Shown: piece after piece, positions 1-61,587 of the stretch
Layout of the letters: each line of letters begins with the position of its first letter
Position numbering within the stretch: position 1 is the first letter of the stretch
Source of the DNA: Lobosporangium transversale
Lineage: Eukaryota
Direction of reading: 5' to 3'
NCBI RefSeq assembly: GCF_002105155.1
Contig: NW_019028989.1
Location: 682,001-746,000, forward strand
DNA length: 64,000 nt
The notes under the pieces: model-generated
What the model saw: the letters and a program-made list of their open reading frames with translations, nothing else
Databases searched by the model: none
Told to the model about the DNA's origin: nothing
Position numbers and translations under genes: made by a program

Positions 1-880
1 TTTGTTTTAGCCAACTCCCACACAGCTTTCAATCGGACCTTAGGATCTCTGATTCGACGTGCGCGAACAAACTTGCTATTGTTCTATAAAGATGATGCAA
101 TTATCCAGTAGATGCGATTGGCACTTTGTCATTGAGTGTCTTTTTTTTTTTTTTTTTTTTTTTTTTGTTTTTGTTTTTCTCTGTAGAGAGTTTATGTGGA
201 AAAAAAAAAAAAAAAAAAAAAAATACTAAACGACCAAATCCTTACATCGTCCACTTTGAGTTTTGAGCAGGAGTAGCATACACACTCAAGGATCTTTTTG
301 ACTTTTGTGAGGAAGCCTAGAAAGTTTAAACAGATATAGATCAGATTATAGATAATAAATGGATAATAAAGATTAACAATAGTAATTAAAAATAATAAAT
401 AATAAATTACAGTAACAAATAGTAAATAAATAAATGATAATAGTAGAAATGCTGTTTGATTAGAGCCAATTAAGTGTACCGTTGAGATAGACAGGCTTAG
501 CAAGCTCAATGTGCCCAAAGTGGCCAGGACACTCAGCCATGCCTTCAGAGCAAGTTTGGCACTTGAAGTTTCGGTTAATAGTTCCCATTCTAGGGTCATG
601 CAGGCCACCAATCTTAGGTCTCTTAGTGGCTTCGTCGATCAGTTCTGCATGCTCAATCTTGGCCACTGACATATTTTTCTATATTAAAAGAAAAAAAGAA
701 ATGTGAGAAACCGATAAGCATTTATTAATATTGCTTTACTTTACGGGAAGCAGCGATAATACATCTTGTTTCTCTTTTCATCATGAAACGTACAATTTCC
801 TCAGGTGAAAGGATGCCAAACTGTACGCAGTCCACACGCCGCAGCGGTGCTGATGAATATGCGAAACGTGTATTACTCAT
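1..880 (-). pseudogene. RPB1: Inverted duplicate of the RPB1 5' end (exons 1-3 and start of exon 4), running off the window edge
   Basis: Mirror of 9005-9885; encodes [30 protein letters not shown]. It could be a real duplicate or an assembly artefact, and completeness cannot be judged. Confidence 0.7.
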
Positions 881-3012
881 GATAGAGAAGGACAGATGAC
901 AGATGACAGAGCAAAGAGAGAATCAGATGGGAAAACTCCTGTCTTTATAGCTATTCTCCACTTTCTGCTGCGCATACGTAAAAATAAATCTTGGTGACGT
1001 ACGTAGCTGCGTGTCTAGAGCTTGAGCGCTAGCTAACACCTCAGCTAACACTTTTTTTTTGTTAAATGCACCTCAGCTAATACTTTTTTTTTTTTTTAAC
1101 ACTTTGTACCCTCACTCACGTTTCCAGCAGACGCCTAACGTTCTCACCCAATGCACCTCTTTTCCTCATTTTCCGATTACATGTCTAACGACCTAATTCA
1201 ATTCTATTGAAGTCCTCTCTTTTTTCTAGTCATTAAACCTTACAGCAGTAGACAAGTTTGTGAGTGATCCTTTCCCAAGCTTGTATTCATCACTAGGCTC
1301 AGAACCTTAAGAGGCTTCACCACCTTTACACGCATTACATGAGTCCTACATTGTCATAAAAAATTTACATTATATAACACATAAAAAATAATAAATAATT
1401 AAAGGATCTTTATTTTTCAGTGGGTGTCCATGAATTTGTACCTTGACCGCCCTTCAAACCTAGTCTTTAGGCAATTTGGCTGACTTAGTAGGATAGGTAG
1501 TTGATTTTCTGCTGCACTCAAGCCGAGGCTGTCTGAGTCTTTATCTCTTTCTTGCTCTCTCTTCATAGGCAGTATACAATCGACTCACCATGTTGACTAT
1601 GGCCGATCAGAATCTAGGAGAATAACAGGAAGATATTGGTACTAATATTTATTGACTCTCCTTGCTGCAATAGACATTTCATTTTATCTCGCACATTTGA
1701 ACTTCTTTTCACTCTGTCGTTGCTATCGTCCATAATTTCACCTGCTTTGTGCCTCCTTTCCCCTTCACGGCGGCCTTCCTCTGCCTCCTCCTCTCCTGCT
1801 TCGCTCTCTTCTCATTCTCTTCTTCTCTCTTTTTCTCCACTTCTTCCTTCCTAGCCAATATTTATCTTAAATGATCAAAATCATTTGATATGTAAACGGA
1901 TTATTCAGTAGGCGGCGGTCGTGTCCATTTTCTATAGTTTAGTTCCTTATGAAACTTGTAAGACTTCACTTCATTTATCCCTGGCCTTTCTGATTCCACG
2001 CACCTTCCTGATTCCGGATTCGGGGAGCCGTCGCTAACAAGAGACCATCACTTTCTAAAAAGTAGGAAAGCATATTAAACTTAGATTTATGTATAACTCC
2101 CATAAATTCTGAATGATAGGGACGATGATACTCCACTTACTTAGAGTAGACGTGCCCAATTCATGTACCAGTGTTATCTAATACAAAAATAACATAAACC
2201 TAGGACCGTAATCTACCCAGAAAGAGAGTTGATGTCATGTCCAAGCCATCCAGAATCTGAGTTTCAAGAGGAGCAGTACCTCGAGTCCAAATATGGCACT
2301 CTTGGAGGCAACATCAAAGTTGGGGCATACTTTAAGGTCTTGACTTTTAATGAATTCACAAGACTAATTTGAGTGCTAGAGTCAAAGGGAACGAAGCAGA
2401 CAACTTAAGGCAAGCTACGAAGAGAAATGAAGCGTAGCTTACAGCAGATACGCCAAAACAACCCATGCAGGGCCAAACAAAAGAAAGTTGGCTCCGAACC
2501 GCTTGTTTGGCAAACTCTGTTGCGATTAGCAGTCATTTACATGGGTTTTTACTATAGCTAAGATTTTTACCCTTTTTATTTAACGAAGATCCCTGGATCA
2601 TAATAAACACATCTTTCTTTCGTTCTCGTTACTTATTATGATCCTGGCATATTTCAAACTCCAAAACAAGCTCTGATATTAAGTAACCGTTATCTTAAAT
2701 ATACGACAAGACCTGGATCGTACATATTATAAGGGAAGAATCCATGGCCAGTGCCTGTATCCCATGAAAATGGCAAACATGAGAGAAGTCCATGTCCGCG
2801 AAACACAGATTTTTTTAATAAAAAAAAGAAAACTAATGAATCAGTCAAACTCTCCTGAAATCATCCATGTTTGGCCTCAGGCGCGTTCATTTTTTTTAGT
2901 TCGCTTAATATGGTGCTTTGCATTTTGTCCATTTTGTCCAAGGTGCTCTTCAGCTCGGCTGTGGTGCAGATCACAAGTAGACATGGCAAAGCATATTAGG
3001 CAAAAAATAACA

Positions 3013-3612
3013 TTAAAAAAATAAAAAATAAAAAGTACAGATATCAGAAAGCCTGTTGTCTGTTGTTCTCAACTGAATTGAATTGATATCAACTAACTTA
3101 CAGACATTCTCTTCTAGAGATCTTAGACGAGATGCTATAGTACCACCATCAGCTTCACTACCATACTTGCCGGGATCTGGTGAAGGAGAAAATGCCTTGC
3201 TGGGATCTGGTGGAGAGAAGAATTCTGCGGATATGACGACCGGGGTCGGGTCGAGATAATGGTGGTGCCTGCTGCGGTTGTCAGGCAGTGCCACAATCGT
3301 GGCGTTTTTTGGACATTTTTTTTTCTCCGTAAATATATCTAAAATCATCGTCTGGCACGCATGGCATCTGTGGACATGCCGAGGAAACCTTACATGTCCA
3401 ACTTCACTACATTCTTCCCCGGGCGGTTTGAACGTGCCAGTTTTTGTCGGTGTAGTAGTGTAGGCGATGCACAGCTTGTTGGGAATAAGTGGTTTGATGT
3501 AAACGATGGCACTTGTAGGTGTAGGGGAAGAAAGGCTTTCTTTATCATCGTAAGGAGGAGGGAGGGTATTAAGCGTGACAGCCTTGAATTTTTTTGTTAT
3601 AGCTTTAGGCAT
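3013..3612 (-). CDS. Hypothetical 199-aa ORF in the left IR arm (identical to 6273..6872)
   Basis: Longest ORF in the arm; no recognisable domain. Confidence 0.3.
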   Translation of the reverse strand: MPKAITKKFKAVTLNTLPPPYDDKESLSSPTPTSAIVYIKPLIPNKLCIAYTTTPTKTGTFKPPGEECSEVGHVRFPRHVHRCHACQTMILDIFTEKKKCPKNATIVALPDNRSRHHHYLDPTPVVISAEFFSPPDPSKAFSPSPDPGKYGSEADGGTIASRLRSLEENVCKLVDINSIQLRTTDNRLSDICTFYFLFF

Positions 3613-3948
3613 TACAAAAAAAAAAAGGAACTTGATGACAGGAGGAGAAGGTGTGAATTTCTTTTCATGTTGGCTGCCTTTTAAGTTGCGAGTACCCCAA
3701 CTTTTTTACACGACTTACTGCGTCGATATTATTTGAGCAGCATGCTTACATTTTACAGTCGATATTGATTTTTATAGGCGTTTTCTTAAGAAAAACGTCT
3801 ACAAATTTGATTAAATTGACCTCCCTAAATGTTTTATTCTAAAATGACGTTTGGAAAGTCACACATATATATTTCTCACATGACATGTGATGAGAAACAA
3901 AAATTTTTATTTTTTTTACTCATTGCTGCTTATAACAAAAAAAAAAAA

Positions 3949-5999: not shown

Positions 6000-8900
6000 T
6001 GTCATGTGAGAAATATATATGTGTGACTTTCTAAACGTCATTTTAGAATAAAACATTTAGGGAGGTCAATTTAATCAAATTTGTAGACGTTTTTCTTAAG
6101 AAAACGCCTATAAAAATCAATATCGACTGTAAAATGTAAGCATGCTGCTCAAATAATATCGACGCAGTAAGTCGTGTAAAAAAGTTGGGGTACTCGCAAC
6201 TTAAAAGGCAGCCAACATGAAAAGAAATTCACACCTTCTCCTCCTGTCATCAAGTTCCTTTTTTTTTTTGTAATGCCTAAAGCTATAACAAAAAAATTCA
6301 AGGCTGTCACGCTTAATACCCTCCCTCCTCCTTACGATGATAAAGAAAGCCTTTCTTCCCCTACACCTACAAGTGCCATCGTTTACATCAAACCACTTAT
6401 TCCCAACAAGCTGTGCATCGCCTACACTACTACACCGACAAAAACTGGCACGTTCAAACCGCCCGGGGAAGAATGTAGTGAAGTTGGACATGTAAGGTTT
6501 CCTCGGCATGTCCACAGATGCCATGCGTGCCAGACGATGATTTTAGATATATTTACGGAGAAAAAAAAATGTCCAAAAAACGCCACGATTGTGGCACTGC
6601 CTGACAACCGCAGCAGGCACCACCATTATCTCGACCCGACCCCGGTCGTCATATCCGCAGAATTCTTCTCTCCACCAGATCCCAGCAAGGCATTTTCTCC
6701 TTCACCAGATCCCGGCAAGTATGGTAGTGAAGCTGATGGTGGTACTATAGCATCTCGTCTAAGATCTCTAGAAGAGAATGTCTGTAAGTTAGTTGATATC
6801 AATTCAATTCAGTTGAGAACAACAGACAACAGGCTTTCTGATATCTGTACTTTTTATTTTTTATTTTTTTAATGTTATTTTTTGCCTAATATGCTTTGCC
6901 ATGTCTACTTGTGATCTGCACCACAGCCGAGCTGAAGAGCACCTTGGACAAAATGGACAAAATGCAAAGCACCATATTAAGCGAACTAAAAAAAATGAAC
7001 GCGCCTGAGGCCAAACATGGATGATTTCAGGAGAGTTTGACTGATTCATTAGTTTTCTTTTTTTTATTAAAAAAATCTGTGTTTCGCGGACATGGACTTC
7101 TCTCATGTTTGCCATTTTCATGGGATACAGGCACTGGCCATGGATTCTTCCCTTATAATATGTACGATCCAGGTCTTGTCGTATATTTAAGATAACGGTT
7201 ACTTAATATCAGAGCTTGTTTTGGAGTTTGAAATATGCCAGGATCATAATAAGTAACGAGAACGAAAGAAAGATGTGTTTATTATGATCCAGGGATCTTC
7301 GTTAAATAAAAAGGGTAAAAATCTTAGCTATAGTAAAAACCCATGTAAATGACTGCTAATCGCAACAGAGTTTGCCAAACAAGCGGTTCGGAGCCAACTT
7401 TCTTTTGTTTGGCCCTGCATGGGTTGTTTTGGCGTATCTGCTGTAAGCTACGCTTCATTTCTCTTCGTAGCTTGCCTTAAGTTGTCTGCTTCGTTCCCTT
7501 TGACTCTAGCACTCAAATTAGTCTTGTGAATTCATTAAAAGTCAAGACCTTAAAGTATGCCCCAACTTTGATGTTGCCTCCAAGAGTGCCATATTTGGAC
7601 TCGAGGTACTGCTCCTCTTGAAACTCAGATTCTGGATGGCTTGGACATGACATCAACTCTCTTTCTGGGTAGATTACGGTCCTAGGTTTATGTTATTTTT
7701 GTATTAGATAACACTGGTACATGAATTGGGCACGTCTACTCTAAGTAAGTGGAGTATCATCGTCCCTATCATTCAGAATTTATGGGAGTTATACATAAAT
7801 CTAAGTTTAATATGCTTTCCTACTTTTTAGAAAGTGATGGTCTCTTGTTAGCGACGGCTCCCCGAATCCGGAATCAGGAAGGTGCGTGGAATCAGAAAGG
7901 CCAGGGATAAATGAAGTGAAGTCTTACAAGTTTCATAAGGAACTAAACTATAGAAAATGGACACGACCGCCGCCTACTGAATAATCCGTTTACATATCAA
8001 ATGATTTTGATCATTTAAGATAAATATTGGCTAGGAAGGAAGAAGTGGAGAAAAAGAGAGAAGAAGAGAATGAGAAGAGAGCGAAGCAGGAGAGGAGGAG
8101 GCAGAGGAAGGCCGCCGTGAAGGGGAAAGGAGGCACAAAGCAGGTGAAATTATGGACGATAGCAACGACAGAGTGAAAAGAAGTTCAAATGTGCGAGATA
8201 AAATGAAATGTCTATTGCAGCAAGGAGAGTCAATAAATATTAGTACCAATATCTTCCTGTTATTCTCCTAGATTCTGATCGGCCATAGTCAACATGGTGA
8301 GTCGATTGTATACTGCCTATGAAGAGAGAGCAAGAAAGAGATAAAGACTCAGACAGCCTCGGCTTGAGTGCAGCAGAAAATCAACTACCTATCCTACTAA
8401 GTCAGCCAAATTGCCTAAAGACTAGGTTTGAAGGGCGGTCAAGGTACAAATTCATGGACACCCACTGAAAAATAAAGATCCTTTAATTATTTATTATTTT
8501 TTATGTGTTATATAATGTAAATTTTTATGACAATGTAGGACTCATGTAATGCGTGTAAAGGTGGTGAAGCCTCTTAAGGTTCTGAGCCTAGTGATGAATA
8601 CAAGCTTGGGAAAGGATCACTCACAAACTTGTCTACTGCTGTAAGGTTTAATGACTAGAAAAAAGAGAGGACTTCAATAGAATTGAATTAGGTCGTTAGA
8701 CATGTAATCGGAAAATGAGGAAAAGAGGTGCATTGGGTGAGAACGTTAGGCGTCTGCTGGAAACGTGAGTGAGGGTACAAAGTGTTAAAAAAAAAAAAAA
8801 GTATTAGCTGAGGTGCATTTAACAAAAAAAAAAGTGTTAGCTGAGGTGTTAGCTAGCGCTCAAGCTCTAGACACGCAGCTACGTACGTCACCAAGATTTA

Positions 8901-9885
8901 TTTTTACGTATGCGCAGCAGAAAGTGGAGAATAGCTATAAAGACAGGAGTTTTCCCATCTGATTCTCTCTTTGCTCTGTCATCTGTCATCTGTCCTTCTC
9001 TATCATGAGTAATACACGTTTCGCATATTCATCAGCACCGCTGCGGCGTGTGGACTGCGTACAGTTTGGCATCCTTTCACCTGAGGAAATTGTACGTTTC
9101 ATGATGAAAAGAGAAACAAGATGTATTATCGCTGCTTCCCGTAAAGTAAAGCAATATTAATAAATGCTTATCGGTTTCTCACATTTCTTTTTTTCTTTTA
9201 ATATAGAAAAATATGTCAGTGGCCAAGATTGAGCATGCAGAACTGATCGACGAAGCCACTAAGAGACCTAAGATTGGTGGCCTGCATGACCCTAGAATGG
9301 GAACTATTAACCGAAACTTCAAGTGCCAAACTTGCTCTGAAGGCATGGCTGAGTGTCCTGGCCACTTTGGGCACATTGAGCTTGCTAAGCCTGTCTATCT
9401 CAACGGTACACTTAATTGGCTCTAATCAAACAGCATTTCTACTATTATCATTTATTTATTTACTATTTGTTACTGTAATTTATTATTTATTATTTTTAAT
9501 TACTATTGTTAATCTTTATTATCCATTTATTATCTATAATCTGATCTATATCTGTTTAAACTTTCTAGGCTTCCTCACAAAAGTCAAAAAGATCCTTGAG
9601 TGTGTATGCTACTCCTGCTCAAAACTCAAAGTGGACGATGTAAGGATTTGGTCGTTTAGTATTTTTTTTTTTTTTTTTTTTTTTTCCACATAAACTCTCT
9701 ACAGAGAAAAACAAAAACAAAAAAAAAAAAAAAAAAAAAAAAAAAGACACTCAATGACAAAGTGCCAATCGCATCTACTGGATAATTGCATCATCTTTAT
9801 AGAACAATAGCAAGTTTGTTCGCGCACGTCGAATCAGAGATCCTAAGGTCCGATTGAAAGCTGTGTGGGAGTTGGCTAAAACAAA
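6000..9885. repeat. Right arm of giant inverted repeat
   Basis: Reverse complement of 1-3885. Differences I could see are homopolymer lengths and one substitution (3853 G vs 6032 T). Confidence 0.97.
6273..6872 (+). CDS. Hypothetical 199-aa ORF, divergent from the transposase
   Basis: ORF track; possibly spliced and element-associated; no domain recognised. Confidence 0.3.
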   Translation: MPKAITKKFKAVTLNTLPPPYDDKESLSSPTPTSAIVYIKPLIPNKLCIAYTTTPTKTGTFKPPGEECSEVGHVRFPRHVHRCHACQTMILDIFTEKKKCPKNATIVALPDNRSRHHHYLDPTPVVISAEFFSPPDPSKAFSPSPDPGKYGSEADGGTIASRLRSLEENVCKLVDINSIQLRTTDNRLSDICTFYFLFF

Positions 9886-20683: not shown

Positions 20684-23219
20684 CTGTACGGTTTTTGCAA
20701 AAGATTAGAGAGGATACAGGAGACGAAAATAAACAGAACTTACAAATTTTTTGTGGGTGTGCCGGCACCCAAATACTTGTGTCTAGCGTCGTGCGCGCTT
20801 TGCAGCCGGAGCAGGGACTCTTCCGTGGGCTTGTACTTTGCAGGCCTCTCTTGCCTCTCAATTTGAGCAAGACCGATTCTTGCGATGTTTTCCGCCCCTA
20901 CTGCGTCACGGTCGAAGAATACCTTACATGTCCAGCAATATTTAGAGCGAGGGTACACCGTCTCTAAAAAGCTATCGCAGAGAGGTCGGGGACAGCGGGC
21001 GCTGGTGTAAAATTCGTGCGCCCCTACAGTGAAGTGTCCTCGTGCTTTGACCTAAGCGTTTCAAATGGCAGTCGTTTATTAACAAGGGCTCTATGGCTTT
21101 CCAGCTTTTCTTACTTTTTTTAAAAAAAGCCATACCTGTGTGACAAGGTGTCTCGTTATAGCAGTGTGCTTGCTGGGAACTCCTTTACTACTTTCAACGG
21201 ACCCTAGGCCGACGAAAAGCACCCCTTTTCCCCGAGCATCTTCAACACTCGCTGCACCGCGTAGTCGAACGTAGCTCGTTGAGCCTTTCGTAGGTCCCAT
21301 TTTTTTTTCAGGTCCACCTGGACTCGTAGAATTCTTGAAGCACATCCAAATTCTTTGATCCTATCTGTGTCTGGGACTCCTCGTTCATCCATTGAAAGTA
21401 CTCATTGTACGTATCCCTTCCAAACACAGGGATGGCGCTCTCAACCTCAATCATTCCTTTTTCACGCTTCCTTTTGTTCAACAGGTGATTGAAGCGGAGG
21501 ACGGGGAGGTACAAGAACCTGCTTCTCACCTTTACCTTTTGCCGCAAGTTAGGGTTGTGAGGATCCAGGGAGGAAAACGTAAGGGCGTTAACAATACCAG
21601 TATCACATCCGACGATAGTTGTGGTGTTTACGGATGGGCATCGCCCTGGTTTGTTGAATGTGAGCTCAACGTTTTCAAGCAGTTTGGAGCTCCTCTTCCA
21701 GTTTATGTTTGCGTAGTCTTCATCTGTTAGGTCTTCACCGGCCGCCTCTGAACACGTCGTGTTGAGAAATCCCTGAGAAAGCTCCAGTTCTTGGCTGGGG
21801 TCTTCTTCATCTACGTCAGACTGCTGCTGTCTCTTCTTCGTCTGGGTTGTGTCATAGGCAAGTAGATTCAGAACTAGACCGTTGGTAGAAACTGTTCCTT
21901 TGAGTTTGAACCGAGTTAGATCCTTGTCCTGTGACTGCAGGGATACTTTGTCTCGATATCCAAGAACCATGCGATCGCCTCCAATGTCACAAAAGAGAGC
22001 CTGAATCAAAACCCCTTTTGTTCCCTGTACACACTCAAACATTGCAGTCTTGGAAGGATTGTCGAGAGGCAGAATACGCTCCAGCAGCTGCTTGGTATCT
22101 TCGTTCGCCCAGAGGGTGTCAACTAGGGCGTGTTCAGACAGATACACATACCCGGGTGACCAGGGGGACGTAGGAAAGTCTGAGTATTTTTTCACTTTTT
22201 TGTTCTCCCGCAAAAAAAACTCAATGTCGCTCATATCTTCGTTTGTTTTCTCGACATCAAACTAGGAAAAAAAAAATAAAAATAAAAAATAAAAGTCTGA
22301 ATAAAGAGCATTTGATTGCAGAATATACATGAAAATACCTTACACAAGGTTATACCATTGCGTTCCTGTACTGCCGCGTTCCCTCCCAACATCTCACTAG
22401 CTTCCCTTAGGTAATCTCGAAGCATTTTATTGTAGTTCTCGTTCCACGCAACCTTTCGAATTAATCGAAGATTATTAATCGGGCCAACGTCTCGAGGTTC
22501 CTTGAGTAATCATTGCCTGCGATGGCACAGAATAACACCAGATGTTCATGTGATGACGGGCTTAGTGCTTGGATAACGTTGTCTACATCGTAAACCCCAA
22601 ACTTCCGTCTACGGTGTGGAAGGGGTCGCGCTAGGAAGCAGACTCGTTCGCACGCAAAAAAATCAGAGTCTTGGGATATCACGATTCTATCATTCTCCTC
22701 ATTATGGCACCCTATGCATGGGTCCGCTTCATATGTACACAGACAGACATCGAAGACAGAGCTAAGGCCTGTTGCCAGCTGATCCTTTTCCTGGACGCTA
22801 AGGGTGTGGACTTCTCGAAGACCCTTCTGGATGCGCCTCATGACTTGAGGACGAGTCCATACCCCACTCCGAGAATTTCTCTCGAAGGTGCTCATATCGT
22901 TCTCCAAAGCATCCATATTTTTTTCTCTTATGGCTTGCCGTTCTGTCCTTGCTTTTTCTTTCTCAGTACAAGGTTCCCCATCAATATGTATAGTCAGATT
23001 GTCCTTTATCACGAGAGCCAGGGACCTTCCTACATCAATGATGGATTCGCTTTTCATCTTGGCATGGACGACTCTGCGGAGGGTGTCGTAATAGAACGTA
23101 CCGAGGAGATCTACATGAACAGAATGGTCAGGGTTTGCCGCCAAGAAATTGCCCACGTCAGTTTCCGAAGGTAAAACCCCGCGATCCGCAACCAGTTTGA
23201 AGAAGGACTTCAGCCCCAT
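20684..23219 (-). mobile_element. XPG/FEN1-like PIN nuclease fused to Fanzor-type RuvC, copy 1 (frameshifts, internal deletion)
   Basis: N-term MGLKSFFKLV, VHVDLLG, IHIDG..EK, YEADPCI, SQDSDFF, GNDYS. C-term TTIVGCDTG (RuvC-I), FVGLGS..GVPSKH, VGAHEFYTSARCPRPLC..KYCWTC..FDRDAVGAENIA (RuvC-II Glu, Zn finger, RuvC-III). GT-AG introns. Confidence 0.85.
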
Positions 23220-53826: not shown

Positions 53827-55372
53827 ATGTGTCAAGGTGCTGTGCCTGAATATTTCAAGTTTAAAGAGGCTCCTCCAGAGCTACCCCCAGGTTGGCTAGG
53901 GTCTCGGTTCCTACACGAATTAGATGTTATCGATCCTCATACACAGACGAAGGAGTACGTGGTGTCCAAAACAGCTCCATGTCCTATCATTGATGCCCAT
54001 GTTCATGGTAAATAATAATAAAAAAAAAAACACGATTTGTGATTAACATTGAACGAGATAACTTCAATTGGAGACTTTTCCCTCTTATTTAATGCATACT
54101 CGTGGGTTTCATTGTTAGTTTTCCCTCAGAAACTCATGGATGCTGTGTGGACGTTCTTTGACAACTTTTATTGGCCTGTTCGTTATAAGGGAACATATCT
54201 TGAAAGTAGAGCTGATTTCTTGATCGAGCATGGTGTCACTCATGTTGTGCTTCTGGTGTAAGTCTACCACACTAAAAAAGACGGATGAGCCAAGAAGCAG
54301 AGCACGAAAAGTAACAAAGTTTCTTTCACTCTACCTATTTTTTTTTTTTTCATTTTTTATTTTCATTATTATTATTACAAGATATGCACACAAGAACGGT
54401 ATTGCGCGCGATTTAAACAAATATCTCGCTCAAGTCGTCAACGACATGAATACACGCTATAATAAAAAGTTCTCAAAGGAAGAGGCATCCGGCCAGATTC
54501 AGAAACAAAAGAGAAGAAGAGTGGCTACGGGTCTTGCAACGGTCATGCCTGGAGAACCTGGAGCTAAAGACATCCTAGCAGAAGCATTTACAACATTGGG
54601 ATTATCAGGAATTAAAATGCATTCACATGTTCAGTCTGTTCCAGCGAATCATCCAAGCATGGATGAGGTCTATGAGACCTGTATCCGTTTCAACAAGCCT
54701 GTACTCATCCATGCAGGCAAAGCCCCCAATAGCTCTGCCTACAAGGTCGATGCAGGCAAGATTTGTGATGCTAGCATTGTGGAGGATGTACTCAAACGTT
54801 ATCCTCGCCTACGCATGTGTGTTCCTCATCTCGGTATGACTCCTTGGCCCATCTCTCTCTTTTTGGTCTAATCGGATACTGTGACTTGGCTTATTAACTA
54901 CTGTTTCGTATTCTCTTTTATACGTCTAGGCATGAACCAATATGAAGAGTTCTTTGATTTATTGGATCGATACCCTAATTTCTATCTGGATACGACCATG
55001 ACATTCGGCTCATTCTTTCAGACGTTTGAAGAAAACAAGCCTCTAGCAGAACTGCTTCGGACAATGTTTCTTAAGCACAGTGATCGGATCCTCTACGGGT
55101 CAGATTGGCCTAATATTCCATATTCATGGAGTCGTGAGATAGCTAACTTGGTTAGTTTGATGGATGGTGATGGTGATGTTATTTCTTCGGCTGTAGCAGG
55201 AGGAGGAAATCAAAAAGGTATACACCGTACAGCGGAAGGCGATACGGTATTAGAAAAGATCCTGTGGCGTAATGCAAGCCGATTCTATGGCATCTCTGAA
55301 GAGGACTTGGGATTGTCCGACATTAACTCTAGTGGCAGTCAAAATTCCACGCCATTCCCATCAAATCTGTAG
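53827..55372 (+). CDS. Amidohydrolase_2-family metal-dependent TIM-barrel hydrolase (multi-exon)
   Basis: IIDAHVH, GIKMHSHVQ, PVLIHAG, YPRLRMCVPHLG, FYLDTT, RILYGSDWP, ILWRNASRFY. Confidence 0.88.
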
Positions 55373-56034
55373 TTTAACATGGCGCTTTTTATATTCCAAA
55401 ATGTGTTTAAATGCTGTGCAAGTTATGGAGGGACATTGATGTAAAGATATTTTTAGTGTAGCCCGTTCCATTTGGTCGCGATCCCTTATATTTTTTGAAT
55501 ACTCTTAAATGTATTGGCAGCCAATTGACTCGCTTGTTATTGCAAGTGGTGTGACTGGTCAACTGGTCATTAAAATTAATTTCAGTTTATCTTGTATCCA
55601 CTAATCTGTCGAACCAGCTTAAAGGAATCTTTGCGCAAAGCCTTTGTAGTCATAGGCGGGTCCGCCTCACCTAGAAACTACCGAGTATAAAAGCCAAAGA
55701 AACTTCCTTCTTAATAAAGTCTTCAGTTTTCCCCACATGTCTTATTCTTCATCCGCAGTTCATCTTGCCATTTATCTTTTTCCCCTTTTCACAACAAGCA
55801 TTTGTCTTCCGGTAACTCATTTTGTGAGCTCACCTATAAAGCTCCCATCTTTTCTTTTGACATTCTATGGCGCTGTTTGTAGTCAAGGTTATTTGACTCT
55901 ATTTTCTCTTGTCAATCTTGTTGACACTCTTTGTCCTGCCTTTTCCTGATTGTGTCTATCTTTCTGTCCCTTAAGCAAAGATATTTTTTACAACAATGCC
56001 ACCAAACCAATTTATTATGATTAAGATATGTGGG

Positions 56035-56186
56035 GTCTATATGTTGTCTAAATAGTCCTCCTTATAAAAAAACACCATCTAGACCAAGCATAGAAATAAA
56101 GAGATTAGTCAAGAAAGCACTGTCGAGCTAATACTTACAACTTTTTCAAGACGAAGGCCTTTCCCGACCTAGTCATGTTTGTAGTA
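56035..56186 (-). repeat. Diverged copy of the 3' flank of the PIN-Fanzor gene (inverted relative to 60982-61175)
   Basis: Reverse complement tactacaaacatgactaggtcgggaaaggccttcgtcttgaaaaagttgtaagtatt matches 60982-61038 tactacaaacatgactaggtccagaaaggccttcgtcttaaaaaaattgtaagtatt; weaker similarity continues outward. Confidence 0.85.
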
Positions 56187-56540
56187 TCTCATGAAAAATT
56201 TTAGACAGACAAATAGTAACCAGGGAGCAGAAGTGAGAATAGGATGTGGGTTCACACATCACATCCATGGGGCATTTATCCAAATTTGTATCAAAATAAA
56301 ACTGCAAGTTTGTCTCGGGCACCACACCATGGGGCATAGAGCTGTTAGTATGTCTGTATTATAAATTTTCATGTAACACGTGTACTGTGAAATATGCAAC
56401 TGATCATATCCTATTGTTGTTGCCGGCTTGGTGTCTTTCCTCCCCATGGATTCAACGAAGGCTATTTTGGTATCTCGAGTTTGGACTCAACCTGTCAGTG
56501 AGCATTGGTGCAACGCATATAAGGCACACAGGCTGTTGAC

Positions 56541-57150
56541 GAGCCTACTTCTCACCTTCACCGTTTGACGCAGGTCAGGGTTGTGACGGTCTAGCGAAGA
56601 AAACGTAAGGGCATTAACAATACCAGGATCGGATTAGACGGTAGTTGTGGTATTTGCAAATGAGCATCGCCCTGGCTCATGGAATATGAGTCCAACGTTT
56701 TCAAGAAGTTTGGGGCCCCTCTTCCAGCTTATGTTTGCGTAGTCTTCATCTATCAGGCCTTCACCGGCTGCCTTTAAAACACGCCGTGTTAAGGAATCCT
56801 TGAGAAAGTTTCAATTCCTGGCTGAGATCTTCTTCATCTACGTCAGACTGCTGCTGTCTCTTCGTCTGGACTGTGTCATAGGCAAGTGGATTCAGAACAA
56901 GGCCATTGGTAAAGTCGTTCCTTTGAGTTTGAACCGAGTTATACCTTTGTCTTGTGCCTGTAGGGGTACCTTGTCTCGATAGCCATGAAACATGCGATCT
57001 CCTTCAATGTCACAAAGAGAGCCTGTATCTAGACTTCTTTTGTTCCCTGTACACATTCAAACACTGCAGCCTTGGAAGGATTGTCGAGAGGATGTCAGTT
57101 AGGACGTGTTCAGACAGATACACATACCGAGGGGGGACGTAAGGAAGTCT
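56541..57150 (-). pseudogene. PIN-Fanzor copy 3: degenerate fragment around the RuvC-I region
   Basis: Collinear nucleotide similarity to 21514-22181 (shared gaaaacgtaagggc.ttaacaatacca, cagactgctgctgtctcttc, aatgtcacaaa.gagagcctg, gttcagacagatacacata) with indels. Confidence 0.88.
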
Positions 57151-57327
57151 ATTTTTTTTATTTCTTGTTGATTGTCATGGCGAAGGCTTGATTTGGTAAA
57201 TGTAGATGATTGGAGAAGAGCTGTAAACAATACTCGAAATCCAAAAAGTTAAAACCTGTCGCTGAGAATCTTATTGTTTCGAGTTGTTCCAAATTCATCA
57301 GCCTTTTGTTTCGTTCTCTTTCATACA

Positions 57328-57337
57328 CCTATAAATA
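57328..57337 (+). promoter_or_regulatory. Putative TATA box of PIN-Fanzor copy 2
   Basis: CTATAAATA, then a pyrimidine-rich leader and a putative 5' UTR intron (gt 57463 to tag 57553) abutting the ATG. Copy 1 has TATAAAAA on the minus strand near 23455-23463. Confidence 0.4.
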
Positions 57338-57553
57338 CGTCCTGCCTCCTTCTCTTTTTCCCTCTCTCTCTCTCTCATTTACAACGACATTGCTTTCGCG
57401 CTCTCACCCGTACTCTTACACCCTCATCCCCTCACAGACCATAACTTTTTGCTTTCTTAAAGGTAAACTATCTCTACTCTAACAACTTCAGCTTCAATCT
57501 TTAGCCGCTTAAACCAACATTGCTTGCACTGTTTTACACTATACTTTCTCTAG

Positions 57554-60500
57554 ATGGGTATTAAAGGACTCTATTCATACCTTTCAAGGAGAGACCTGCC
57601 ACCAAAGGAGATTGATGTACATGAGCTTGCTGCTGAACCCCATTCATCTTTTGAGCTGGATCTGCTTGGCACTTTCCACAGCGATATACATAATATCATC
57701 CTAAGGAGATTCAGCCGGCAGAGTTCTTTCACTGCCTGCGGCCATGCTATGGCTAGTATCATTCGAAAGATCTTTGGTCCTCTTGCCACAGTGACGATAC
57801 ACATTGATGGGCCTCGCTGCGAAGAAAAAACGCGTGCCTATAGGGACCGAGATGCTAAGCGTACAGCAGCGGATGCAAAACTCGATACGCTCATAGCCAA
57901 CATGGAAACCAAGTCCAATGAAGGCAAATGGGAATCTCGAAGCCATATGATTGCCATTAAAAAGAATCTTCGACAGCTCTTCACATTCAGTCATAACGAG
58001 AAGAGGGAGCTCGTGGCGCCATTCGGTCGATACAATAACTTTGTGATTTGCCATTGTAGAAATGAGGCTGATGTGTGTATTGCCGCCAAATGTACACCAA
58101 CCAGTATCGCTGTGTCTGGGGACTCTGACCTTCTCATCTATCCTTCTATAAAAAGAGTTCTTCGTCCAATCCCTCGTCGCCATCACATGTTTGCACTCTA
58201 TGAGAAACAAGAGGTCCTGCAAGCCCTTGGGTTTTCAAGGAACAGTCAACTCCTGGTCTATGGCATTATATCCGATAACGATTACACCCCAAATATCCCA
58301 ACCTTTGGTCTTGCTACAAATGCTGAGATTATCTCCGCGCTCACTGACACTGATGCCGAAAAGTTGACGGTATCATATGTTCGTGAGGTCCATGCCCGTA
58401 GCCGTCGAACTCCTGCAGAAGGCCAGTTTGACCATTCAATTAATGTTTTCTTTGGTGGGATCCAAACCCAGGCCTCGCAGCAACCAACCGCTGAAAGATT
58501 CCTTCATTACCATGATAGAATGAGGACTGCGATATCTGCTAGGTACCAGAATAAAAATAATCAACCTCAACCCAGGTAAGCTCCTTCAAATGAACATTTT
58601 CCAAAGCATATACAAAAAAAAAAAAAAAAAAAAAAAAAAAGTCATCTAACCCTTGACATTGTTGTTCCTAATTAGATTCTATATCCCTAAACGCGCAAAG
58701 CCGAATCGCTATCGGCCTGTTTTCCCTACCCAGAAAAAGGAACTTTCCCCTAAGAAATATGACCTGACCAACTGCAAACAACACGACCGTCCCGTCAGCT
58801 CCAGCCGTCAAAGAAAGTCCCCCAAAAAAAAAGGAAAAGGAAAAAAAAGAGGATGACAAAGAAGAGGAGGTTAAGGAGGAAAAGAAGAAAAAAAAGAAGA
58901 ACAAAGGGAAGGCCAAGTATATCAGAAAGACTGATAAGACCAGGAAAGTGAAGGAGGCTACTGCCGAGGACCGACGGTTGAAGAGGGCCCACCCCACTGT
59001 TGCATTAACTCTGGGCACGTTAAAGACATGTGTAGTTGCCAAGCTGGACTCTACTTCCGATCCCAATCTCAATCCCGAGCAACTTGCTGCAACAATTCAA
59101 GGGCTCAATCAATCATTTATTAAAATGTTGAATGAGGCACGGATTCGAGCTTTCTGGGCCTGCGCCTTGTGGATCGATAACCTGCTTACCACTGGGCCAT
59201 CCAATCCAGCTGATCTCCCACAACTCCTAGATGAAGTTCTTGATAGCAGGGACTTTATTTACGGCCTTGCTGCGTTGTTGTATCACGGAGTGATGAGTCC
59301 ATTATCTAGGTATAGCAGGGAAGTGAAGAAAAAAGGCGAAGGGAACGTAGCCAAGCCGTCCCAGCTCAAAGCATACGAAAACTTCTATGCAAAGACAGGG
59401 CTTGGTCCTTTAAACCAGATCTATCCCGATTTGGTGATCAGCAAGTCGTCTCGGATGGTCATGGTCCCTGTTCGAGCAGCGCTAAGGTCTCACTATCGGA
59501 ATGCGCAGGTAAATATAATATTATAATATTTTGAGGTTATCTTATAATATGTTTATAGAAATGTTCCTAATCATTTCTTCAATATAATGTCTAGTTTGAC
59601 ATAGATATTCCAGGCGATGGAAGAAGTTCCATCCAATTCTTTTTTGAGCAAAATGCAACTGCCAAAAAATATCTGGATTTCCCTACGTCTGCTTTCCCGC
59701 CTCGGTCTCTCTGCCTAACGGAAGCCTGCCTCCTGGATATATTATGGTCTAACCCAACAGTTCGAGAGGAAATAGTCCAATTGTTGGAACTAAACATGAG
59801 TACCAAGGGGGCTGCGGAGGACAAGATCCTTAACCACAAGGGGATATTGTTGCAGGAGCTGTTTTCCTTGAAAGGATACAAGGACGTTGGACTGCAATCT
59901 GATGATGGCCCTAGAAGGAAACTACGGACATCGTTCTTTACAAACGGCCTTACCCTAACACTTCTTGCCTATGACACATCGAAGCAAAAAAGAGGTAGAG
60001 GTTCGCAAGCTGCCCAACCTTCGGATACTCAAAGATCTCAAGCAGTCCAGGCTTCTTCAAGTGCTCAGCAGGGATCCTCGTCTTCAGGCCATGGTGCAGG
60101 TGATGGTGGTGATGATGGAGACGACGACGGAAATGAAGATGACGATATCTTGCTGGGTATCAGCGATATTGACTTGCTGGAAGTTGATGAACCATTCTTA
60201 GATGGCGACGAGGGAGAAGAAGCAGCTGAAGAAGGTACATCGAGCACAAATCCACTGTCCCCGGTGAGTCCCAGTCCCCGGCGTGAGATCAACTGGAAGC
60301 AGAGATCCCGTCTCCTCGAGAATGTAGAAGTTAAATATGACACCCAGGCAGCATGCCCTCCCCCCGAAAGTACCATTATCATTGGGATCGATCCAGGCGA
60401 GAGGTACTCGATGACAATTGCAAAGTTGGATCCAAGGAAACCTAACGAACGTGAGATCCTCCGGATTTCTAGAGCGTACCTTTACAAACCATCCAAGAAG

Positions 60501-60972
60501 TTTCAGGGCGAGCTAGAGAGGCGAAAGCTTAGAAGAGGAATTACAGAGATTGAAAGCCATTGTAGGTTATCATGAATACTACACATCTGCCAAGTGTCCA
60601 CGACCTCACTGTGACAGTATATTGGAGAATGTTCCTTTTCGATCCAAGTACTGTCGAAATTGTAAAACATACTTTGATCGAGATGCTGTTGGTGCTGAGA
60701 ACATCGCAAGGGTCTGTGAGTCGCAGATAAGAGAGCAAAAACGACCTGCAAAATATATGCCACCGGACGGAGGAACTCAAGGCCAAGCTTCTAGCGGTAG
60801 TGGCGACGGTGGAGGTAGTGGTGGCAGTGGTGGCAGTGGTGGTGGTAGTAGCAGATCCACAAAAAGGGAATTTTCAGATGAAGGAGGAGGAGGAGTAGAG
60901 GGATCAAGACCACCGAAAGGACCTTTGCTGGGTCCAGGAGGAGGGGGAGAGACAAGCCGGCAACAACAGTAG
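57554..60972 (+). mobile_element. XPG/FEN1-like PIN nuclease fused to Fanzor-type RuvC, copy 2 (exons ~57554-58575, 58676-59508, 59595-60972; frameshifts and a deletion between RuvC-I and RuvC-II)
   Basis: MGIKGLYSYL, FELDLLG, IHIDG..EK, NEADVCI, SGDSDLL, DNDYTPNIPTFG (H3TH); Lys-rich linker; TVALTLGTLK; FTNGLTLTLLAYD; IIIGIDPGE (RuvC-I); VGYHEYYTSAKCPRPHC..KYCRNC..FDRDAVGAENIA. Confidence 0.88.
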
Positions 60973-61587
60973 GACACAATCTACTACAAACATGACTAGG
61001 TCCAGAAAGGCCTTCGTCTTAAAAAAATTGTAAGTATTGGCTTGATAGTACTTTTTTTTCTTGGTTAATTTATTTATTTATTTATTTCTGTGTTCTAATA
61101 CATTTCTTCTTTTTACAATTGATGGAATGTCTCGTTTTTTAATGGGACGGACTACACATGGGATAGACACAGCCCAAACGCCTCGAGGCGTCGTGGCTTT
61201 CTTCTGATGACATGAATCCCATGCCTGTGTTCCGTTGGGCAAAAAAGAGAAGCCAACACAGCATGCGGCGAAATCGTGGCTCTGTATGCGGGAAAAAAGA
61301 ATCGCGGGACGTACTATTTGCATGTAATTCACTCACTGAAAAAAAAGTTTTCTTTCTTTCTCACACAGTTGTTCTCTTTCTTTTTTTCTTTCTTCCTTTC
61401 TGATTGTTCATTTTGCATAATTATTAATTTCATTTTATTTCGCTCCACTTCATTTCATCGCAACTGTTGCTTTTTATACAAATCTACTCATTATAAAAAA
61501 TAAAAAGACATTCCAAACACTCAATCTCCTGTTTAATCTTTCTCTGATCCACAACAAAAATATCAGCAAAAAGAGAAAAAAAAAAAA

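Follow-up and report, generated by a model that had tools for sequence, protein, structure and literature searches.

A probable spliceosomal-type intron within a predicted Fanzor1 omegaRNA scaffold of Lobosporangium transversale

Directly behind the stop codon of a Fanzor gene in Lobosporangium transversale (contig NW_019028989.1) lies a short conserved block that contains a GTAAGT splice donor and recurs on the opposite strand nearby. Whether this block belongs to the guide RNA of the Fanzor, to an exon of another gene or to the terminus of a transposon is the question addressed here for a window of 64,000 nt (positions 682,001 to 746,000 of the contig). We propose, with a probability of roughly 0.7, that the block forms the 5' portion of the scaffold of a Fanzor1 omegaRNA, and that this scaffold is split by a spliceosomal intron and becomes a working guide RNA only after splicing by the host. 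In all features that could be assessed with the present data the region agrees with a Fanzor1 omegaRNA, and it is a predicted member of this class; the novelty would lie in the intron inside the scaffold, the Fanzor1 omegaRNA itself being known. The following features are referred to below, where A, B and C are the scaffold copies of the window, X marks sequencing runs and L marks metagenome loci.

55459..61154, + strand: multicopy composite element holding an XPG/FEN1-like ORF, the Fanzor1 gene and two scaffold copies, with 14-bp imperfect terminal inverted repeats
55459..55472, + strand: left terminal inverted repeat, 12/14 bases matching the right end; X7 loose contig ends at 55459 and 55465
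56053..56186, - strand: copy B, the second, internal scaffold; exon 1 56186-56139, canonical 60-nt GT-AG intron 56138-56079, exon 2 56078-56053
56402..57170, - strand: decayed Fanzor fragment (~56535-57170, related to a copy at 21515-22204) and A-type ORF-end remnant, from sequence comparison
57554..58579, + strand: XPG/FEN1-like nuclease ORF (phmmer to XPG, E 4e-4)
58674..60972, + strand: Fanzor1 coding pieces (tblastn)
60973..61029, + strand: predicted omegaRNA scaffold exon 1 of copy A, with stem-loop 1 at 60994-61018 (loop 61003-61008) and an A-rich linker at 61019-61029
61030..61121, + strand: spliceosomal-type intron of 92 nt, with the GTAAGT donor at 61030, a CTAAT branch-like motif and, in the window copy, a TG (not AG) acceptor
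61122..61154, + strand: predicted scaffold exon 2 with stem-loop 2 (fold; X7 and X1 loose ends at 61154; depth drop)
61141-61154, + strand: right terminal repeat, closing the predicted scaffold exon 2
61155..61171, + strand: target-site dinucleotide (CA here, TA in other copies) and single-copy flank, the predicted guide (loose ends with TA; L002, L003 and L004 diverge after CTATA)
20684..20782, - strand: copy C, behind a different Fanzor family; hairpin of different sequence and A-rich linker 20782-20744, canonical 60-nt GT-AG intron 20743-20684

The composite element and its right end

Judged from its sequence, the gene upstream of the block is a Mortierellaceae-type Fanzor1. Its family profile matches the SpuFz1 structure 8gkh (E 2.4e-4), its C-terminus scores 28.1 bits with the Pfam Cas12f1-like TNB domain (cut-off 26.3), and its nearest named homologues come from L. 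transversale and other Mortierellaceae. The DPG, HEYYTS and DRD motifs (the RuvC D-E-D, with the E right before the zinc finger) are present in the family members P0001 and P0007. The window Fanzor is without ~159 residues (256-414 of P0001), with the frame broken, at ~60557-60560. The window copy is probably a dead donor, its nuclease having lost this part and its acceptor being TG. The preceding XPG/FEN1-like ORF is probably the first exon of a fusion with Fanzor; homologues of it are located upstream of Fanzor at window copy C (22464-23219, - strand), in L007 (288-1088) and in L008 (249-1037).

Read depth in the DNA runs is high between the bins 55267-55533 and 61134-61160, both included, and low on either side of them. 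Across 61160/61161 it drops from 570.9 to 7.4 in X3 and from 11436.6 to 136.6 in X1, a fall of ~80-fold, these depths being sums and not copy numbers. Loose contig ends at 61154, two in X7 and two in X1, come from other copies, and all of their flanks begin with TA. On the left side of the element, the flanks at two loose ends point to a TAM that may end in GTA. A degenerate 13-letter pattern of the element end has exact matches in the window only at 55459 and 61142. Outside its ends the window copy has TG and CA instead of TA. With the flanking GTG (55456-55458) and CAC (61155-61157) its inverted repeat lengthens to 15/17, while other copies have TA at both ends. A TA duplication is not compatible with the window copy, for which blunt insertion into a palindrome might be an alternative. 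The composite element appears to have been amplified as one unit; no transposase was seen inside it. Its part 55459-57300 consists of the inverted decayed Fanzor fragment of another family, the A-type ORF end and scaffold B. Elsewhere in the window, 1-3885 and 6000-9885 form a 99.9% inverted duplication of 3.9 kb around a stretch with transposase-like ORF remnants, which is either a real repeat or an assembly artefact.

The match on which the preliminary description was founded, 57 nt with four mismatches to the minus strand at 56130-56186, proved exact: 60982-61038 (+) and 56186-56130 (-) are identical at 53/57 positions, and a BLAST search of the window against itself extends the match to 98 nt (83%, E 2e-21). 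The block starts at the 10th base past the Fanzor stop codon (TAG, 60970-60972), and all four mismatches between A and B (61003, 61004, 61021 and 61027) fall into the loop or linker of the stem-loop 1 region. As had been described, the second copy lies 3' of the minus-strand Fanzor fragment at ~56535-57170 and on the same strand. The weaker similarity reported further downstream holds in part. Past a poorly conserved stretch it resumes weakly and stops at GGACTA (61154 and 56053), and the resemblance of 61122-61154 to 56078-56053 was equalled by only 7/3000 random window pieces; the 30 nt that come after GGACTA, with the 'tagac' stretch, are at chance level (equalled by 394/3000 pieces) and sit in DNA of single-copy read depth. 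The limits first proposed, 61175 and 56035, were consequently ~20 nt too far out, and the sharp boundary sought 3' of the block is found at 61154, where depth drops and the loose ends begin to differ, both at the DNA level only.

The suggestion that 56035-61175 is bracketed by inverted termini does not hold in that form: 56035-56186 is an internal scaffold copy, and the true terminal inverted repeat is at 55459-55472. Copy B is accompanied by a remnant of the ORF end (56402-56430, matching 60953-60981) ~220 nt away from the block copy, and multicopy contigs cross its end. B is accordingly no terminus but a passenger inside the element, and its flank is fixed. The would-be guide of scaffold B is the element's own fixed sequence.

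A hairpin, linker and donor follow the stop codon at 3/3 Fanzor ends in the window, and TTGTAAGT occurs four times in the window, three times at these three 3' ends. The idea put forward initially, that an omegaRNA region marks the element end, is supported by the position of the block, the sharp end at 61154, a covarying hairpin and the relatives described below.

Evidence for splicing and distribution of the predicted intron

A single contig of a single run provides the splice evidence. In X7, record 17 (519 nt, depth 241.5) covers 60557-61029 and continues directly with 33 nt from 61122, a joint that is absent from the four DNA runs X1, X3, X4 and X8. X7 is a probable RNA run, its RNA nature being guessed, and none of the runs listed is recorded as RNA; it alone among them contains three GT-AG joints in a neighbouring gene. 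The contig comes from another copy of the element, for 21 of its letters are missing from the window copy at the site of the deletion. X7 also carries private variants (e.g., at 57615, 58719, 59250 and 59776) and is not matched to any of the DNA runs, so that a genomic intron-less copy could be the source of the joint. X7 contains unspliced contigs as well: the donor is crossed by contigs with depths of 25.6, 16.8 and 8.85, the acceptor by contigs with depths of 433 and 54.1, and copy B is found there in the unspliced form only (depth 16.8).

Two further observations concern the same stretch. X7 and X3 have a loose end at 61025, from another copy without the donor and part of the intron, in which the linker is joined to the branch-like motif. 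X8 looks bisulfite-converted on 60861-61039, with C>T at 44 places and G>A at 11; one X8 contig shows 31 other letters over a stretch with 30 C, which suggests that the element part in that contig is unmethylated at C.

Relatives of the block were found in metagenomic data. The 11 loci considered (36-79% identity, 44.8 kb in total) include eight under one dataset prefix. In 5/11 loci (L002, L003, L004, L007 and L011), the hairpin is followed by an A-rich linker that leads over TT into GTAAGT, and TTGTAAGT occurs five times in the 44.8 kb, each time at 26-66 nt past the Fanzor stop. L001 and L005 possess a scaffold without the donor-linked intron, the hairpin and linker running directly into the stem-2 sequence. 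L001 looks genomic, its ORF match being ~77 nt longer than the protein requires, and is continuous across the junction seen in X7. No scaffold was seen in L006, L008 and L009 (3/11 loci); L010, which has no flank, is outside the scaffold count. L002, L003 and L004 end sharply at CTATA and then diverge. Two pairs, L002/L004 and A/B, are near-duplicates.

All eight intron-bearing copies have the GTAAGT donor, and CTAAY or CTGAY, judged by eye, lies upstream of the acceptor. The acceptor is TG in window copy A and AG in B, C, L002, L003, L004, L007 and L011. Intron lengths range from 60 to 106 nt at a constant junction position, and the canonical 60-nt introns of B and C are located as in A. A second donor is present 6-12 nt into exon 2 of L002, L003 and L004, and also there in L001. 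The second intron predicted from it would lie in the stem-2 loop (L002 1797-1885, L004 547-642, L003 755-835, L001 from 1359), leaving a micro-exon of 6-14 nt, and its acceptor would fall in the terminal 7 bases of the element.

Nonsense-mediated decay is triggered by junctions more than 50-55 nt past a stop codon. The distance of the junction from the stop is 57 nt in A, L001, L002 and L004 and 25-39 nt in C, L005, L007 and L011, and a role of the junction in this decay was rejected as not general.

A tree of the 72-column C-terminal peptide (L011 frameshifted; L006, in which the motif is absent, omitted) had 0/9 starred branches and is neutral as to whether the intron was gained or lost. When 108.8 kb were scanned at E values up to 5 with a model of the sequence alone, the 10 scaffolds from which it had been built were recovered, by construction, and nothing else. 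Viral contigs gave no match by protein or block pattern, and an Rfam scan of 55300-61500 returned one chance match (E 1.3) outside the block and no group I intron, IStron or other family. The C-terminal peptide of P0004, an Entomortierella gene model, resembles the translated block, and this protein sequence hints that the same scaffold lies behind a Fanzor in another genus.

Folding of the predicted joined scaffold and the alternative readings

A hairpin of 4-8 bp, stem 1, is found in 10/10 scaffolds, with varying sequence. Stem 1 covaries, and the support for stem 2 is mixed. In a MAFFT alignment of the six best-aligning of the 10 scaffolds, RNAalifold gave five pairs for stem 1, three of them changed on both sides; 92% of the cells were paired compared with 28-68% in slid controls, and 1/500 shuffles was as high for pairing and covariation score, relatedness being known to inflate such scores. 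Run on all 10 scaffolds, in which the arms are out of register, RNAalifold returned no consensus pair. Over the 38 nt that precede the junction, folding is better than in shuffled sequences (Stouffer z -3.78 over eight families, 3/8 reaching z -1.5) and than in the sequences upstream of 21 other GTAAGT donors (Mann-Whitney p 0.0017). Folded by itself, the unspliced block did not reach significance (z -0.6 to -1.6), and folding of the whole scaffold was weak, with z -2.05 for A and -1.74 to +0.40 for the other eight.

When the exons are joined, a two-stem minimum-free-energy fold is obtained for six of the eight intron-bearing copies (A, B, C, L003, L007 and L011) and not for L002 and L004; in C, L003, L007 and L011, stem 2 crosses the junction. 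The intron-less L005 has a two-stem fold at 47 nt, whose stem 2 refolds with 15 nt of extra flank. With 15 nt of flank, the probability of stem 2 is higher in the spliced than in the unspliced form for C (0.51 versus 0.07), L002 (0.20 versus 0.00), L003 (0.93 versus 0.05), L004 (0.22 versus 0.00) and L007 (0.98 versus 0.16). The values are 0.63 and 0.56 for A and 0.02 and 0.00 for L011, and B is lower when spliced (0.37 versus 0.93). Only in A, B and L002-L004 do the ends have an independent basis; in C, L005, L007 and L011 they were picked from the fold, and there the reasoning is circular. B, L007 and L011 have 2, 7 and 4 candidate AGs, respectively, and in each the acceptor chosen is the one with the best pairing from junction to end, two of these ends being derived from the fold. 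Between L002 and L003, a double compensatory change connects the start of exon 2 with the terminal bases.

According to the mechanism that we propose, the Fanzor mRNA would read through the right end of the element into the flank, and the spliceosome would excise 61030-61121, bringing stem-loop 1 and the linker beside stem-loop 2. The TA of the target site would pair with the two bases that meet at the junction, the last U of exon 1 and the first A of exon 2, and so close stem 2 just before the guide. Trimming would leave an RNA of ~60-100 nt with ~15 nt of flank as the guide, a guide length taken over from SpuFz1 (PMC10432273), and this RNA would direct Fanzor to cut the empty site. Release of the small RNA, loading and cleavage are presumed here by analogy with published Fanzor1 systems. 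Observed in support are the location of the block, which lies between the stop codon and an element end mapped to 61154, the conserved order of hairpin, linker and donor, the contig of probable RNA that leads from the ORF through the block and is joined exactly at the donor, and relatives with and without the intron.

That the region is an omegaRNA for which splicing is optional, the intron being a tolerated loop-out between the stems or serving expression tuning only, appears possible but unlikely. Such tolerance would agree with GtFz1, in which stem 1 is separated from the guide by additional stem-loops, the region past stem 1 being described as poorly constrained (PMC11423790), with the formation of stem 2 of A and B in unspliced RNA and with the unspliced contigs of X7. 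However, in C, L003 and L007 the stem 2 that crosses the junction is lost without splicing, stem 1 too is lost in unspliced L007 and L011, and the junction stays in place although the intron varies in length.

An ordinary 3' UTR intron beside subterminal transposon DNA, with the hairpin acting in mRNA control or end recognition and no guide scaffold present, is a still less probable reading. It would accommodate the weak global folding and the broken nuclease of the window, but it leaves unexplained a hairpin that varies in sequence and is conserved in structure at a constant place in 10 copies of eight families, intron-less relatives included, as well as a position and size that fit the omegaRNAs described in PMC10432273.

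Very improbable is the alternative raised in the preliminary description, that a partner gene begins here with a short coding exon. The GTAAGT donor that it called for is real, and A and B do have an ATG and an open frame up to it, in which three differences would be synonymous; but this donor lies inside the predicted scaffold, the ATG at that place is confined to the A/B family (there is none before the junction in C, L001, L002, L003, L004 and L007, and that of L011 is elsewhere), and the joined frame enters non-conserved flank, stopping at 22 codons in B and running past the element end in A. A coding micro-exon is thus refuted by the relatives. Least probable of all, spliceosomal 3'-end cleavage at the donor to give a guide-less RNA ending at 61029, as for fungal telomerase RNA, would draw on a mechanism known in fungi (PMC4299874) and suit a window copy without an AG acceptor, but the X7 contig has passed through both splicing steps, B, C and five loci have a canonical AG acceptor, and the guide must derive from the variable flank.

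Returning to the split scaffold, the chances appear evenly balanced that a fungal Fanzor1 lineage has come to need the host spliceosome for making its guide RNA. The scaffold would be split by one or two introns, the stem that determines where the guide starts would form only across the junction, the DNA end would be freed from a double role in RNA structure, and targeting would come under splicing control.

Comparison with known guide RNAs of transposon-encoded nucleases

In published Fanzor1 omegaRNAs, which PMC11423790 lists as uninterrupted stretches of the genome, a first stem of 7 bp is followed by a linker and then by a terminal stem that takes in the target duplication; this duplication thus lies inside the Fanzor1 scaffold (PMC10711439). 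The class is also marked by the absence of a pseudoknot, by a discrete small RNA that reaches ~14-15 nt beyond the element end and by guided DNA cleavage adjacent to a TAM. The joined fold obtained here has the same order of stem 1, linker and stem 2 as SpuFz1 and PpFz1 (PMC11423790). The omegaRNA of SpuFz1, from the Spu-1 elements of Spizellomyces punctatus, has a contiguous scaffold of 75 nt (PMC10432273, PMC3627910, Xu 2024 Table S3), whereas here a GT-AG-type intron of 60-106 nt is found at the boundary between linker and stem 2, and a second intron is predicted in the stem-2 loop of L001-L004. The elements differ also in their terminal repeats, of ~14 bp here and 30-33 bp in Spu-1 (PMC3627910), and in the XPG/FEN1-like ORF that precedes Fanzor here. 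The minimal omegaRNA of PpFz1 from Parasitella parasitica, with a 7-bp stem 1, a short linker and a 4-bp stem 2 (PMC11423790), resembles the fold of the intron-less L005 at 47 nt. It is contiguous over 71 nt, with no intron, in Table S3 of PMC11423790 and belongs to a protein subfamily other than the one studied here. According to the same table, a donor-like CAG-GTAAGC occurs in its apparent second stem-loop, like the second donor of L001; this may be chance or a relic.

The literature searched, for the most part openly accessible main texts, contained no omegaRNA scaffold split by a spliceosomal intron. The word 'intron' occurs 0 times in the main texts of PMC10432273, PMC11423790, PMC10711439 and PMC3627910, and 10 times in PMC10530073, among others in passages on the intron density of Fanzor loci and on an intron-containing gene. 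OmegaRNAs are identified from their conservation in genomes or by having yeast or a cell-free system express the genomic DNA (PMC10432273, PMC10530073), and a split scaffold, if real, would be mis-called or inactive in such assays. The joined forms, with ~45-75 nt before the guide, would then represent natural minimal scaffolds, drawn from a family that counts at least 367 protein clusters. According to PMC10690162, it is still to be determined whether guide processing is done by the Fanzors themselves; with an intron in the scaffold, the guide would derive from a spliced, messenger-type precursor.

A parallel is provided by IStrons, in which a TnpB omegaRNA overlaps a group I intron, so that splicing and guide RNA share one transposon end, as they do here (PMC10690162). 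In the IStron, however, the self-splicing intron contains the scaffold, and splicing severs the guide from it (PMC10690162), whereas here an intron spliced by the host would lie within the scaffold and its removal is predicted to assemble it. If this holds true, the logic of the IStron, in which splicing destroys the guide RNA, would be reversed at the end of this fungal element.
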